From the NCBI GenBank assembly GCA_051275055.1, contig JBNMOQ010000002.1, positions 2,056 through 66,055 on the forward strand: a stretch of DNA of 64,000 nucleotides, written 5' to 3'. A model generated the notes under the pieces. That model did not search any database and was not told where the DNA came from. It was given only the letters and a program-made list of their open reading frames with translations. A program made the position numbers and the translations under genes. This DNA comes from Candidatus Pelagisphaera sp. Its GTDB lineage: Bacteria > Verrucomicrobiota > Verrucomicrobiia > Opitutales > Opitutaceae. Positions 31,525 through 36,721 of the stretch are shown here, in pieces (the first letter of the stretch is position 1; every line of letters starts with the position of its first letter).

Positions 31525-31825
31525 TGTTCACCCATGACCCCCCGATTATTCTGAATCAAATAAAAAACCCCAATAGCCAGATTCGACCGCAAACACCCAA
31601 TTCCTAAGCGTTTCCAGAAATCCTATACCGTCCTTGGTATGAGAGGCATCCTTAGCCTCGACTTTCTAAAATCGTAAAGTAACTACGCAGGCCCTCTTAA
31701 TCCGTTCAGGTGGTCCAATACTCCAACTCATTCAACGCGAAAGTGGCCAGAATTCCATCTTCTCGACCCTCCAACTGCAGTTTGCGCTTTAAATGACGGC
31801 AGTTTTCCCCTCAATAGCCCCCCTC

Positions 31826-32923
31826 ATGCAAACGCTTAAATTCGCAGTTCTCCCCGGTGACTACATCGGACCAGAAGTAATGACCGTCGCACTCGACGTC
31901 CTCAAAGCCGCCACCGAGCCCGCAGGCATTACGCTCGACTACACCGAGGCCAACATCGGCGGCGCCGGAATCGACAACGAAGGCAAAGCCCTTCCCGACT
32001 CCACTATCAAGATCTGCGAAGATGCCGACGCCATCCTCTTCGGCTCCATCGGCGGTCCAAAATGGGAGACCCTTCCTCCAGCTGAGCAGCCCGAACGTGC
32101 CGCCTTGCTCCCCATCCGCAAACACTTCTCCCTTTTTGCCAACCTCCGTCCCGGACTCCTCTATCAAGAGCTCACCGATGCCTCCCCGCTCAAAACCGAG
32201 CGCATCCCCGAAGGCATCGACATTGTATGCGTACGCGAGCTCACCGGCGGCATCTACTTCGGGCCAAAGCGCACCGAGACGCTCCCCGACGGCGACATCC
32301 AAGCGACAGACGAGATGGTCTACAAAAAAAGCGAAATCGAACGCATCCTCGAAGTCGCCATCGCCTCCGCCAGATCCCGCTCCGGCAAAATCTGCTCCGT
32401 CGACAAAGCGAACGTCCTCACCACCTCTGTCCTCTGGCGCCAGACCGCCATTGAATACATCGGCAAGCACGCGCCCGAGATTGAACTCACCCACATGTAC
32501 GTCGACAACGCCGCCATGCAAATGGCCCGCGACCCCAATCAATTCGACGTCATCGTAACCGAGAACATGTTCGGCGACATCATTTCCGACGAAATGGGCA
32601 TCGTCTGCGGCAGCCTCGGTATGCTCTCCAGCGCGAGTCTCGGCACCGGCAAAAACCAATACGACCTCCCCTTCGGACTCTACGAGCCAAGTGGCGGCAC
32701 CGCTCCCGACATCGCAGGCAAAGGCATCGCCAACCCCTGTGCCCAAATTCTCAGCGCAGCTCTCATGCTCCGTTACAGCTTCGGCCTAAACGACATCGCC
32801 GAAAAGATCGAAGCCGCAGTCAAGCAAGCCGTCATGGACGGCAACCGCACCGGCGACATATCCTTCGGCCAAAAATCCATCGGCACCAAAGAAATGGCCG
32901 CCGCCGTCATCGAAAGACTGTAG
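31826..32923 (+). CDS. leuB: 3-isopropylmalate dehydrogenase
   Basis: PGDYIGPEV, RELTGGIYFG, DKANVL, NMFGDIISD, YEP..GTAPDIAGKGIANP. Confidence 0.97.
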   Translation: MQTLKFAVLPGDYIGPEVMTVALDVLKAATEPAGITLDYTEANIGGAGIDNEGKALPDSTIKICEDADAILFGSIGGPKWETLPPAEQPERAALLPIRKHFSLFANLRPGLLYQELTDASPLKTERIPEGIDIVCVRELTGGIYFGPKRTETLPDGDIQATDEMVYKKSEIERILEVAIASARSRSGKICSVDKANVLTTSVLWRQTAIEYIGKHAPEIELTHMYVDNAAMQMARDPNQFDVIVTENMFGDIISDEMGIVCGSLGMLSSASLGTGKNQYDLPFGLYEPSGGTAPDIAGKGIANPCAQILSAALMLRYSFGLNDIAEKIEAAVKQAVMDGNRTGDISFGQKSIGTKEMAAAVIERL

Positions 32924-32924
32924 A

Positions 32925-32958
32925 TTTTTCGCCCACGAAGAACACAAAGTTCACAAAG
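32925..32958 (+). repeat. Left arm: TTTTTCGCC plus three CACRAAG units at 9-nt period
   Basis: TTTTTC GCC CACGAAG AA CACAAAG TT CACAAAG. Confidence 0.85.
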
Positions 32959-32965
32959 TAATTCG

Positions 32966-33341
32966 ATGGAGATTCTATTCAAAGACGAGTGCTACAAACT
33001 CATCGGAACCGCCATTGAAGTCCAACGTGAACTAGGCAACGGACTCCTCGAGCCTATCTACCAAGAAGCGCTCGAACGAGAACTCGCCTTTCAGAAAATT
33101 CCTTTTGAAGCCCAGCCACTTCTGAAAGTTTTCTACAAAGGAGTCCCTCTCGACAAAAAATACTACGCGGATATTATCGCCTACAAAGAAATCATCATAG
33201 AGCTCAAAGCTCCTCCCACGGCTTACTAGCAAAGAAGAGTCACAACTCCTCAACTACCTTAAAGCCTCAAAACTAAGACTAGGTCTCCTAATAAATTTCG
33301 GGTCACCCGCTCCACTCGAATGGAAGCGTATCATAAACTGA
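32966..33341 (+). pseudogene. GxxExxY protein (PD-(D/E)xK nuclease family) with a one-base frameshift
   Basis: GLLEPIY, ADII...IELKA; one extra base near 33209-33221, after which the other frame reads LTSKEESQLLNYLKASKLRLGLLINFG...KRIIN-stop. Confidence 0.88.
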
Positions 33342-33356
33342 AAACATCTTCCCATC

Positions 33357-33390
33357 CTTCGTGATCTTCGTGCCCTTCGTGGGCAAAAAA
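33357..33390 (-). repeat. Right arm: inverted copy with three CACGAAG units
   Basis: Reverse complement TTTTTT GCC CACGAAG GG CACGAAG AT CACGAAG. Confidence 0.85.
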
Positions 33391-33409: not shown

Positions 33410-36058
33410 ATGACTTCCGACCAAATTCGCCAATCCTTCCTAGACTTCTTCAAGTCTAAACAGCACTCCATCGTCCCATCCGCATCCCTAATGCCGGATG
33501 CCCCCAACCTGCTGTTCACAAACGCGGGTATGAATCAGTTCGTCCCCTACTTCCTCGGAGACCGCGAAGCTCCCTACCCACGCGCAGCAGACACCCAAAA
33601 GTGCATTCGCGCTGGCGGCAAACACAACGACCTCGAAGACGTTGGCCTCGACACTTATCACCACACCTTCTTCGAGATGCTCGGCAACTGGTCCTTCGGC
33701 GACTATTTCAAAAAAGAAGCCATCGAGTGGGCCTGGGAACTCATCACCGAAGTCTGGAAATTCCCGATCGAACGCCTCTACGCCTCCGTCTACAAACCCG
33801 GCGAAGGCGACCCCGCCGACTTCGACCAAGAAGCCTACGATTTCTGGAAAGCCATCTTCGAAAAAGCCGGCCTCGATCCCGACGTCCACATTGTCTACGG
33901 CAACAAAGCCGACAATTTCTGGATGATGGGCGACACAGGTCCTTGCGGACCCTGCTCCGAGCTCCACGTCGACCTCACTCCCAACGGCGACACCCAAGGC
34001 AAGCTCGTCAACGCCGACTCGCCCTACTGCATCGAAATCTGGAATCTCGTATTCATCCAATACAACGCGACACCAGGCGGAGATCTAGTCCCCCTCAAAG
34101 CCAAACACGTCGACACCGGCATGGGCTTCGAACGCGTCGCCGGCATCATGGCGACCTTCAAAAACTTCACCGACTTCTCGACTCCACCAAGTAACTACAA
34201 CTCGGATCTCTTCACTAGTATCTTTGCAGAGCTCGAAAAGCTCTCCGGACACAAGTACCAAAGAACCCTCCCCGAAGACCTCGACAACATCAGCGAAGTC
34301 GAGATGAAAGACGTTATCTTCCGCGTTCTCGCCGATCACGCTCGCTGCCTAGCCTGTTCCATCGCCGACGGCATTCTTCCCGGCAACGAAAGCCGCAACT
34401 ACGTCCTCCGCCGCATCCTCCGCCGCGCCGTCATGTACGGCCGCAAACTCGGCCTCAAGAACGGGTTTTTCGCTGACCTAGTCCCCAACGTAGTCGATCA
34501 ACTAGGACACGTATTTCCCGAGCTCGAGAAGCAAAAAAACATCATCCAAAAAATCATCAAAAGCGAAGAAGATTCCTTTGGAAGAACTCTTGATAGAGGC
34601 ATCCAGCTTTTCGAAAAAATCGTCGCAGATGAAAGTTCAATTTCAGGAATCAACGCATTCACTCTATACGACACCTACGGTTTCCCGCTCGATCTCACTG
34701 AGCTAATGGCCAAGCAACGCGGCATCACAGTCGATACTGCAGGCTTTAAGGTCGAAATGGAAAAGCAACGCGCCAAAGCCCGCGCATCCCAAAAGAAAAC
34801 AGACATCCTTGTATCCGATGGCGAATCTGGTGACGCCACAACATTCGTAGGGTTCGACGAACTCGAAGGCGAAGCCGAAGTTCTCGATGTCCTCAAAGGC
34901 AAAAACGGCGAGAGCTACCTCATCGCCAACCAAAGCCCCTTCTACGCCGAAATGGGCGGCCAAGTCGGCGACACAGGCTCTGCTCTCATTGACGGACAAG
35001 ACTACCGTATTCTGGATACAACCAAAGACGCGGCCGGTCGTTTCCTCCATAAGATCGAAGGCGAGCTCGGCAACATCAAAGGCAAGACCGCTTTTCTCTC
35101 CGTCGACGAAGAACGTCGTAAAGCTATCGAACGTCACCACTCCGCGACACACATACTCCACTACGCTCTCCGCGAAGTACTCGGAACCCACGTACGCCAA
35201 GCAGGATCCTACGTCGATCCCTCACGACTGCGCTTCGATTTTTCCCACTTCGAAGGCATCAAGCCCGAACAGCTCGCAGAAATTGAAAAAATCTGCAACG
35301 AACGCCTCCTAGAAAACGGCGAATGCAAATGGTTCGAAACGCCTTTCGATAACAAACCAGAAGAAGTCATCGCCTTCTTCGGCGACAAATACGGCGACGT
35401 CGTACGGGTAGTCGACATAGGCGGCTTCTCCAAGGAACTCTGCGGAGGCACTCACGTTCGAGCAACCGGCGAAATCGGCATAATCAAGATCGCATCCGAA
35501 TCAGGCATCGCAGCCGGCACCCGCCGCGTCGAAGCTATCGTCGGTCAATCTGCGTATCAGCATGTCAACGATATCGAAGCGACCATCGCTCAACTATCGA
35601 AAGACCTTTCAGTTCCAGCCGGCAAAATTGCCAAGAAGATCGATACAGTCTTAGCCCGCAACGCCGAACTCGAAAAGCAACTGAAAAGCTTCCAGCAAAA
35701 AGCTTCCGGCAATCTAGCTGAAGATCTTCTCAAGACCGCTCAAGAGACCAACGGTATCCAACTCATAAAAGCAGTTATCGATGCCGAGAACCCTAACGCT
35801 CTCCGCGGCCTAGGATCTCAAATATTCGGCAAGCTCGGTGAAGGCCTCGTAGTCCTAGGAGCCAACATCGGCGGCAAAGTAAGCGTAGTAGCGTTCTCCT
35901 CTCCAAGCTCGATCGCCGCAGGCCACAAAGCCGGCGACATAATACGAGACCTAACAGCGAAACTCGACGGCCGCGGCGGCGGCAAACCCGACTTCGCCAT
36001 GGGCGGTGGCTCCAACGCCGAAAAGCTAAAAGAAGTGATAGCCAGTTTTACCGTGTAG
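33410..36058 (+). CDS. alaS: Alanine--tRNA ligase
   Basis: LLFTNAGMNQF, HHTFFEMLGNWSFGDYFK, DTGMGFER, HSATHILH, ELCGGTHV, GGGKP. Confidence 0.99.
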   Translation: MTSDQIRQSFLDFFKSKQHSIVPSASLMPDAPNLLFTNAGMNQFVPYFLGDREAPYPRAADTQKCIRAGGKHNDLEDVGLDTYHHTFFEMLGNWSFGDYFKKEAIEWAWELITEVWKFPIERLYASVYKPGEGDPADFDQEAYDFWKAIFEKAGLDPDVHIVYGNKADNFWMMGDTGPCGPCSELHVDLTPNGDTQGKLVNADSPYCIEIWNLVFIQYNATPGGDLVPLKAKHVDTGMGFERVAGIMATFKNFTDFSTPPSNYNSDLFTSIFAELEKLSGHKYQRTLPEDLDNISEVEMKDVIFRVLADHARCLACSIADGILPGNESRNYVLRRILRRAVMYGRKLGLKNGFFADLVPNVVDQLGHVFPELEKQKNIIQKIIKSEEDSFGRTLDRGIQLFEKIVADESSISGINAFTLYDTYGFPLDLTELMAKQRGITVDTAGFKVEMEKQRAKARASQKKTDILVSDGESGDATTFVGFDELEGEAEVLDVLKGKNGESYLIANQSPFYAEMGGQVGDTGSALIDGQDYRILDTTKDAAGRFLHKIEGELGNIKGKTAFLSVDEERRKAIERHHSATHILHYALREVLGTHVRQAGSYVDPSRLRFDFSHFEGIKPEQLAEIEKICNERLLENGECKWFETPFDNKPEEVIAFFGDKYGDVVRVVDIGGFSKELCGGTHVRATGEIGIIKIASESGIAAGTRRVEAIVGQSAYQHVNDIEATIAQLSKDLSVPAGKIAKKIDTVLARNAELEKQLKSFQQKASGNLAEDLLKTAQETNGIQLIKAVIDAENPNALRGLGSQIFGKLGEGLVVLGANIGGKVSVVAFSSPSSIAAGHKAGDIIRDLTAKLDGRGGGKPDFAMGGGSNAEKLKEVIASFTV

Positions 36059-36068
36059 AAAAGCCATA

Positions 36069-36215
36069 GGTAGGGCGGCATCGCCGAGGCCGCAGCCTTG
36101 CCCACCCTCACTCACCTCACCAAATCACTCTCACGTTTTCTCCAACTTTAATACAAAAATTCGAAATCAACTCTTACTAAATCTAGTGCTGCGGCCTCGG
36201 CGATGCCGCCCTACC
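36069..36215. repeat. Two inverted 28-bp REPs (36069-36096 and 36188-36215) upstream of RAYT
   Basis: GGTAGGGCGGCATCGCCGAGGCCGCAGC and its exact reverse complement. Confidence 0.95.
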
Positions 36216-36232
36216 TGAATCGTTCCTGAACC

Positions 36233-36670
36233 ATGTTACCCAATCGCAAACGATTTCATCACACGCCACCTTCATGGATTCCCGACGCCTCCCTCTTCTT
36301 CATTACAATCTGCTGTAGCCAACGAGGCCACAACACCCTCGCCAAGCCCGAAATAGCCGAACCGCTTTTCGAAAGCGTCGCCTACCGCGAGCAACTTCAG
36401 CAATGGAACGTATCGCTCATCCTCCTCATGCCCGACCATCTCCACGCCTTCATCGCGTTTTCTCCCAACAAACCAATGGAGCAAACGATTGCAGCCTGGA
36501 AACGCTTCACCGCCAAAACACTACCCATAAATTGGCAAGACGGCTTCTTCGATCACCGCCTTCGCAGCCAAACCGAAACCAACGAAAAGTGATCCTACAT
36601 CCTCAATAACCCTGTACGCGCCAACCTCTGCCAATCCCCCGAATCCTGGCCCTACAAAAGCCCCAGGTAG
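36233..36670 (+). pseudogene. REP-associated tyrosine transposase (RAYT/TnpA-REP) with a premature TGA
   Basis: FFITIC, MPDHLH (HUH), WQDGFFDHRLR; TGA at 36590, then in-frame SYILNNPVRANL...WPY to TAG 36668. Confidence 0.92.
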
Positions 36671-36693
36671 GGCGGCATCGCCGAGGCCGCAGC
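36666..36693 (+). repeat. Third identical 28-bp REP, overlapping the RAYT natural stop
   Basis: GGTAGGGCGGCATCGCCGAGGCCGCAGC. Confidence 0.95.
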
Positions 36694-36721
36694 AACCATA
36701 ATTCGGCTCATATAGCTAACC

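Follow-up and report, generated by a model that had tools for sequence, protein, structure and literature searches.

A 64,000-nt stretch of the genome of Candidatus Pelagisphaera sp. (Verrucomicrobiota; Opitutaceae; assembly GCA_051275055.1, contig JBNMOQ010000002.1, positions 2,056 to 66,055), hereafter the window, carries between leuB and alaS a compact cassette in which a single gene of the GxxExxY nuclease family is enclosed by two inverted arrays of heptameric units, the arms. Such arrays accompany almost every GxxExxY locus that we compared, across many phyla, and their units are alike within an element and vary between elements with the protein. A very large family of uncharacterised function thereby gains a handle: its gene is nearly always accompanied by a specific DNA architecture that co-varies with the protein, which predicts that GxxExxY proteins recognise their cognate heptamer arrays. 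The explanation we favour, tentatively and as one that may well prove wrong, is that the nuclease and its arrays form a unit in which the arrays are the cis-acting sites of the enzyme, in a partnership like that of repetitive extragenic palindromes (REP) with REP-associated tyrosine transposases (RAYT), and in which the arms might also form a stem in RNA.

The cassette and its nuclease gene

The cassette begins a single base after the leuB stop codon (TAG, 32921-32923) and ends 19 nt before the alaS start codon (ATG at 33410), with all features on the forward strand. Its left arm (32925-32958) consists of the prefix TTTTTCGCC, ending in GCC, followed by the units CACGAAG, CACAAAG and CACAAAG, which are separated by the dinucleotides aa and tt. 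A gap of 7 nt leads to the ATG of the GxxExxY gene (32966-33341), and 15 nt after its stop codon the right arm begins (33357-33390), in which three CTTCGTG units, separated by at and cc, are followed by GGGCAAAAAA (in the letters of the arm, CTTCGTG GGCAAAAAA, with GGC after the last unit). The units recur at 9-nt steps in both arms, and Tandem Repeats Finder reports a period of 9 at 33356-33381. Together the arms make a 34-nt inverted pair that is 82% complementary (28/34) according to the repeat finder, so that the cassette has terminal inverted repeats of the kind that define an insertion sequence or a miniature inverted-repeat transposable element (MITE). In the 64 kb there are four matches to the double-unit pattern CACRAAGNNCACRAAG, every one of them within the two arms, against a mean of 0.10 in shuffled sequence, and none of 100 shuffles reached four; the window holds one GxxExxY copy and one arm pair of this kind. 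Searches of Rfam gave no match to the arms at E<=10 in the window, PADLOC and PHROGs gave no hit, and the cassette protein matched no transposase family in profile searches. The first-pass annotation of the window, made from the letters alone, had described these borders, the 34-bp arms with their 28 matching positions, the three CACRAAG units spaced at 9 nt and the GxxExxY motifs, and it was right in all of these details.

Read through its frameshift, the protein scores 126.1 bits against TIGR04256 (cut-off 35) and 122.8 bits against PF13366 (PDDEXK_3, cut-off 22). The coding sequence is divided between reading frame 2 (32966-33229, 87 aa), which contains GLLEPIY, the aspartate and ELK, and reading frame 3, which contains QLLNY and carries on to the stop codon at 33339-33341. 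By alignment, the window has one extra C in GCTCCTCCC (approximately 33210-33218), where all three intact orthologues (L001, L002 and L003) have a gap, and the frameshift puts QxxxY in a different frame from D and ExK. The intact open reading frame (ORF) of the family is absent and the window copy is a family pseudogene. Contigs of three independent metagenome studies (ice, marine and marine plankton) cover this region with no indels and so carry the same insertion; the frameshift is therefore a genuine population variant and not a sequencing error. It had been annotated as marking a gene that was probably either inactive or mis-sequenced, and only the former stands. Against the closest orthologue the window copy has a ratio of nonsynonymous to synonymous substitution rates (dN/dS) of 0.067, so that the gene was constrained for nearly all of that branch; the 1-nt insertion has broken it recently in the window lineage. 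In the intact orthologues, the innermost left unit and the spacer that follows it (L001 3984-4003; L002 3986-4003; window 32952-32968) read AAGGAA or GAAGGAA, a Shine-Dalgarno-like sequence 5 nt upstream of the ATG. The AAAGTAA of the window looks like a decayed form of this sequence, consistent with inactivation of the gene.

Both the family motif and the nuclease motif are present in the window protein, as GLLEPIY, D69, E79-L-K81 and QLLNY. Neither an alignment of 30 sequences nor one of 48 shows any variation at E29, D69, Q93 or the motif tyrosine (Y97 or Y98, depending on alignment numbering), and E79 and K81 vary little or not at all; to judge from the sequences, these E, D, ExK and QxxxY residues are the motif set of the RecB family. 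An AlphaFold2 model from the 48-sequence alignment reached a pLDDT of 95, and its top Foldseek matches were Cas4 SSO0001 (E = 1e-4), MGME1, lambda exonuclease and RecE, at modest structural TM-scores (0.6). As modelled, the protein is a minimal RecB/Cas4-type nuclease of about 125 aa, sharing fold and full motif set with the Cas4, RecB and lambda-exonuclease proteins and differing from them in its small size, in having no iron-sulphur cluster domain, and in having no CRISPR or helicase partner. A sequence search of the PDB returned nothing below E = 0.3. The family is very large: clustering at 50% identity leaves about 27,000 clusters, of which 27,422 representatives match at E<=0.001, and phage carriage is rare, since 2.9 million viral contigs yielded a single weak GxxExxY match. 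The literature that we searched mentions GxxExxY proteins in passing and records no function for them, and a 2012 survey of PD-(D/E)XK nucleases entered PF13366 as 'Unknown'. Some members of 250-390 aa (for example P0247, P0283, P0297 and P0305) contain two GxxExxY domains, and are either true tandem fusions or the product of read-through of tandem cassettes.

Periodic arrays at GxxExxY loci

Scanning one genome per species yielded 80 GxxExxY loci, from phyla that include Chloroflexota, Acidobacteriota, Bacteroidota, Planctomycetota, Verrucomicrobiota, Desulfobacterota, Firmicutes and Armatimonadota. In most of these loci the best flank-to-flank inverted repeat exceeded shuffled sequence at z>5, and a two-unit pattern mapped arms directly before and after the gene. 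At least one array was found in 72 of the 76 loci with both flanks complete, which represent at least 12 phyla; the canonical order of forward arm, gene and reverse arm was present in 35 of the 76, and the opposite order, with reverse arm before and forward arm after the gene, in nine. The gene flanks contained 6.1 arrays per kb, the remainder of these loci 0.43 and unrelated LeuB loci (474 kb) 0.08, which makes the flanks 77-fold enriched over these controls. When the arms were parsed, 51 of 84 loci had the arrangement of forward arm, gene and reverse arm, with a terminal prefix that is usually ATC, AAC or GCC, followed by units of the form C-R-C-N-R-A-K; arms of three units were the most frequent (36 of 51 on the left and likewise on the right), the first spacer being 2 nt and the second 3 nt, and unit spacing across GxxExxY cassettes is 9-10 nt. 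No Rfam family matched ten array-rich loci at its gathering score. The neighbours are varied housekeeping genes, with no common target gene and no linked or recurrent recombinase, and the downstream gene is co-directional with the cassette in 26 of 34 loci. In the literature searched, the cassette is undescribed and the arm sequences are in no paper, and publications on four-helix-bundle proteins, on short tandemly repeated repetitive (STRR) sequences and on TAACTGA heptamers are silent on any association of gene and arms.

The units are closely alike within an element and differ between elements, at a mean Hamming distance of 0.74 within and 1.96 between (permutation p=0). The more alike two proteins are, the more alike their units tend to be (Spearman rho -0.30, Mantel p<0.0005); this also holds when only pairs from different phyla are compared, and host phylum is a poor predictor of unit type, as several types occur within one phylum. 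Homogenised units that follow the protein are the picture expected if a recognition element with several sites co-evolves with a trans-acting factor linked to it, and we take the co-variation as a suggestive sign of cognate recognition. The first-pass annotation had proposed to look for arms at other GxxExxY loci, for a shared phylogeny of arm and protein and for relatives with an empty site; arms, co-variation and empty sites were all found.

It had also considered that solitary arms might exist throughout genomes. These exist, both beside GxxExxY genes and on other contigs, in the form of gene-less hairpin doublets, that is, arm pairs with a loop of at most 150 nt and no gene. We identified 52 such doublets in 29 of the 80 GxxExxY loci and none in the control loci, with loops mostly of 15-27 nt. 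The right arm of the window matches other contigs of the same metagenomes, in both orientations and 23-30 nt apart, and in one of the sequencing runs (X1) two of the matching contigs have depths of 16.9 and 18.8, compared with 18.3 for the window contig; given these similar depths, the organism probably carries a few doublets elsewhere in its genome.

Some loci contain much longer arrangements. Beside a GxxExxY gene of a member of the Desulfobacterales (L014, 1960-3380) there are at least ten copies of a 110-bp arm-hairpin unit, and beside one in Chloroflexota (L058, 2040-2420) five copies of an 86-bp unit, and in both of these gene-less arrays the loops and the spacers between hairpins are conserved too. 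One locus (L057, 1968-2960) has tandem cassettes in which 5'-truncated copies of the gene are fused straight to the left arm, making a route of decay visible, and another (L029, 1900-2935) has two tandem genes with the arms between all in one direction. These last two arrangements suggest recombination between arms.

Insertion between leuB and alaS

The borders of the insertion site are leuB (3-isopropylmalate dehydrogenase, 31793-32923, with an Iso_dh match) upstream and alaS (alanyl-tRNA synthetase, 33410-36058) downstream. Relatives with an occupied site were found by exact-protein look-ups, and relatives with an empty site by a metagenome scan with LeuB. The order leuB, GxxExxY, alaS, with the same arms, is present in three more lineages, at GxxExxY and LeuB identities to the window of 92% and 93% (L001), 83% and 79% (L002), and 72% and 85% (L003). 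In two more distant relatives (L087 and L088, LeuB 73% and 70%) the stop codon of leuB and the start codon of alaS overlap in TATGA, and in two others (L089 and L090, both with LeuB at 66%) the genes are separated by spacers of about 20 nt. Because leuB adjoins alaS in these distant relatives, the cassette, arms included, was a discrete insertion in an ancestor of the window clade. Comparison of these sequences shows that the whole package entered a very short spacer in an ancestor of this Opitutae-like lineage and has been inherited vertically since then, with strong purifying selection on protein and arms alike: dN/dS among the site orthologues is 0.05-0.09, with synonymous divergence (dS) at or past saturation, and 0.06-0.18 for leuB. 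The right arm is itself conserved far above neutral sites, with 24-28 of 28 positions identical (86-100%) among the four orthologous loci, compared with 38-68% identity at four-fold degenerate sites of leuB. A leuB-alaS 'joint' in one of the runs (X3), considered as a possible excision allele, was rejected: it is not an empty site but a diverged orthologue, in which 469 nt separate the flanks.

In a sister lineage the same spacer has independently received a cassette of a different kind. In one relative (L109, 4632-5142; LeuB 71%) it contains an ORF of 141 aa that belongs to TIGR02436/PF05635, a four-helix-bundle family ('23S rRNA intervening sequence protein'), between inverted arrays of units with a 7-nt period (xxCGAAC / GTTCGxx). 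An orthologous locus under the source-record name Coraliomargarita akajimensis (L164, 3468-3963) likewise has a TIGR02436 cassette in this spacer, and at another locus (L075, 4319-4720) a four-helix-bundle gene, 1.4 kb from a GxxExxY cassette, is preceded by ACATCGA units and followed by five GTTCGAT units in tandem. That one spacer of about 20 nt was hit by two types of cassette has, as one possible reason, selection against other insertion points between these essential genes. As both types show it, the design of a small ORF between periodic inverted arms is common to two families of proteins that are unrelated to each other, and through the Coraliomargarita cassette with its four-helix-bundle gene the GxxExxY class is linked to the intervening sequences (IVSs) of ribosomal RNA, which are the closest described relative of the design. 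The IVS in the 23S rRNA of Coxiella encodes a protein of the four-helix-bundle family. Its 5' region contains the heptamer GACAGAT three times in tandem, and the first of these repeats is where RNase III cuts when it excises the IVS (PMC4990558).

The likeness of the window cassette to such S23p-type IVSs (PF05635, TIGR02436; Coxiella and Leptospira) extends to a small ORF (about 120-140 aa) within inverted arms with tandem heptamers, an essential transcribed locus as the site, a sporadic distribution, and arms able to form a closing stem, which in the IVS is the stem that RNase III cuts (PMC4990558). It differs in encoding a nuclease rather than a four-helix bundle (the window ORF matches PF13366, not PF05635 or TIGR02436), in a unit period of 9-10 nt instead of 7 nt, and in lying between the protein-coding genes leuB and alaS rather than inside a 23S rRNA helix. 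The conserved rRNA motifs that were searched for are in none of the fetched loci. Should the relationship be real, it would bear on the purpose of the ORFs and heptamer repeats of rRNA IVSs, and the long-unexplained IVS ORFs would share a common, testable function with a large uncharacterised family.

Candidate roles of the arms and related systems

We propose that each array is a cis-acting site that several subunits of the nuclease encoded in the cassette recognise. Such recognition would account for the likeness of the six units within an element and their difference between elements, for a unit sequence that follows the phylogeny of the protein and not the host phylum, and for the build-up of gene-less doublets near genes. 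Nuclease and hairpin repeats would then form a REP/RAYT-like partnership on a different enzyme fold, by virtue of which the system would be, or would once have been, mobile. In a read-through transcript the arms can close a long stem, and by analogy with S23p-type rRNA IVSs RNase III could cut the cassette out at that stem; removal from the transcript is perhaps what makes an insertion between two essential, co-directional genes tolerable.

Several points weigh against this proposal. Binding, cleavage, excision and transposition are all inferred, and physical linkage alone yields part of the correlation between arm and protein. We know of no strand-transfer activity in a lone RecB/Cas4-type nuclease, which leaves re-insertion unexplained. 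A target-site duplication is not definable, the occupied and empty junctions being too diverged, and the copy, which has stayed at one site over saturated synonymous divergence, gives no sign of recent mobility in this lineage. The four-helix-bundle cassettes share the design without a nuclease, which is compatible with a cargo-neutral vehicle mobilised in trans, or with each of the two proteins binding repeats of its own. As to the RNA stem, left-arm units match their register partner in the right arm no better than they match non-partners (p=0.19), spacer identity is 0.56 between partners and 0.49 between different loci of the same class, and mismatches on the sense strand show no excess of G.U over A.C (26 and 19), a further 42 being transversions. 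No contig of three metatranscriptome runs covers the cassette, and a misalignment of the left arm of L003 made RNAalifold uninformative on the four orthologues.

A wider form of the proposal, possible and distinctly more doubtful, is that GxxExxY proteins supply the enzyme of a new class of repeat-nuclease systems found across phyla, reading arrays of three heptamers in a 9-10 nt register and mobilising or maintaining both cassettes and doublets, with the four-helix-bundle (Avd/S23p-like) cassettes, the 23S IVSs included, as a sister branch. The latter cassettes also lend themselves to a less probable account, in which the arms delimit a small non-autonomous element that an unlinked recombinase or transposase moves, and the enclosed proteins are favoured cargo, for example for addiction or defence. 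Such a cargo-neutral vehicle would accommodate two unrelated small proteins in cassettes of the same design, once in the identical spacer, as well as the commonness of gene-less doublets and the fact that a RecB/Cas4-type nuclease alone is not a known transposase. However, unit and period vary with the cargo (C-R-C-N-R-A-K at 9-10 nt with GxxExxY, xxCGAAC or GACAGAT at 7 nt with four-helix bundles), and in cassettes with GxxExxY the unit goes with the clade of the protein, also between phyla; the housekeeping neighbours include no recurrent recombinase, and neither PADLOC nor PHROGs gave a match.

We also think it unlikely that the arms matter solely in RNA, as a double-stranded stem cut by RNase III whose units are a by-product of, for example, replication slippage. 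In the cassette RNA the arms do form the closing stem of the minimum-free-energy fold (z = -5), they are conserved in a vertically inherited copy, the cassette tends to be co-oriented with the downstream gene (26/34), and the Coxiella IVS, with its tandem heptamers and its excision by RNase III, is a precedent (PMC4990558). Against this, position-specific covariation and a G.U bias are absent and about half of the mismatches are pair-breaking transversions; nine loci have arms pointing away from the gene and 52 doublets have no gene at all; and the three-unit architecture, the conserved prefix and the co-variation of unit and protein would be left unexplained. Because the arms close the fold and co-orientation prevails, an RNase III-type processing role may nonetheless exist beside recognition.

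It is less probable still that nuclease and hairpins have become a host function, serving the cell in hairpin repair or recombination, or in stabilisation or termination of mRNA, and are no longer mobile. A dN/dS as low as or lower than that of leuB, saturated dS, a fixed site and arms conserved above neutral expectation would all suit such a role, and RAYT/REPIN systems (REPINs being hairpin-forming REP doublets) are reported to show the same vertical persistence. Protein clades that cut across phyla indicate horizontal spread, though, and close relatives do without the cassette and give no sign of a replacement, and several populations of the window lineage tolerate the frameshift. Finally, short inverted repeats are common, but a chance repeat around an ordinary small gene is refuted by the four matches observed where shuffles give 0.1 and by the arms at 72 of 76 independent loci.

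Among described mobile systems, the favoured reading of a nuclease with its own cis-acting arrays finds its nearest counterpart in REP/RAYT (REPtrons and REPINs). In both, inverted copies of a short repeat enclose the small nuclease-type gene to which the repeat belongs; this repeat also occurs without a gene, as inverted doublets that form hairpins, nearby and elsewhere; vertical inheritance under purifying selection is long, and the repeat co-varies with the protein. They differ in that the enzyme is a RecB/Cas4-type PD-(D/E)XK nuclease here and an HUH Y1 transposase there, in that an arm consists of about three 7-nt units at 9-10 nt instead of one imperfect palindrome, and in that GxxExxY clades cross phyla, that is, have been transferred horizontally. 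The IS200-like tyrosine transposase that defines the RAYT side is missing, since the cassette protein matches PF13366 only and folds as a RecB/Cas4-type nuclease; with the defining enzyme of the one and the defining location of the other absent, the cassette belongs neither to REP/RAYT nor to the S23p-type IVSs. It works most like the former and looks most like the latter. An analogy to REP/RAYT with a different fold was already drawn in the first-pass annotation and fits the architecture well, its mechanism still being an inference; the 23S rRNA IVSs and the four-helix-bundle cassettes, the closest described relatives, were overlooked there. If the analogy is true, partnerships of repeat and enzyme that persist in genomes would extend to a second, unrelated enzyme fold. 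In practice the arms are a simple mark by which the cassettes, and derivatives of them that lack the gene, can be annotated.

Two other classes were compared as well. MITEs are likewise short intergenic elements bounded by inverted repeats, and the Correia elements of Neisseria are MITEs that are processed at the RNA level, RNase III being able to cut their transcript hairpins. The ends of the GxxExxY cassette are instead periodic multi-unit arrays, are tied to a specific coding gene, and match no known parent insertion sequence. The core sites of integron attC elements have the form RYYYAAC ... GTTRRRY; we considered attC sites and rejected them, as the termini of the cassettes are mostly ATC/GAT, with AAC in 8-9 of 51 arms, and the hairpins consist of three heptamer units.

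A possible second instance of vertical retention at one site comes from two Chloroflexota (L022 and L032), in which the GxxExxY cassette lies between the same neighbours, a protein of about 385 aa upstream and one of about 330 aa downstream. From their sequences alone we presume these to be FemAB-type and ACC-deaminase/D-cysteine-desulfhydrase-like, respectively, and if they are so identified the two loci would make such a case.

The window permits a direct comparison with REP/RAYT, since a unit of that type lies 2.8 kb downstream of the cassette, just past alaS (36068-36694). As a mobiliser of the cassette it was rejected, as its own repeat is an unrelated GC-rich 31-mer and no such gene is called after alaS in L001. 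Its ORF (36233-36592) has a Y1_Tnp match and scores 47.5 bits against NF047646 (REP-associated tyrosine transposase), below the 80-bit cut-off. It is flanked by perfect 31-nt inverted repeats at 36187-36217 and 36664-36694, and a third copy at 36068-36096 makes a doublet.

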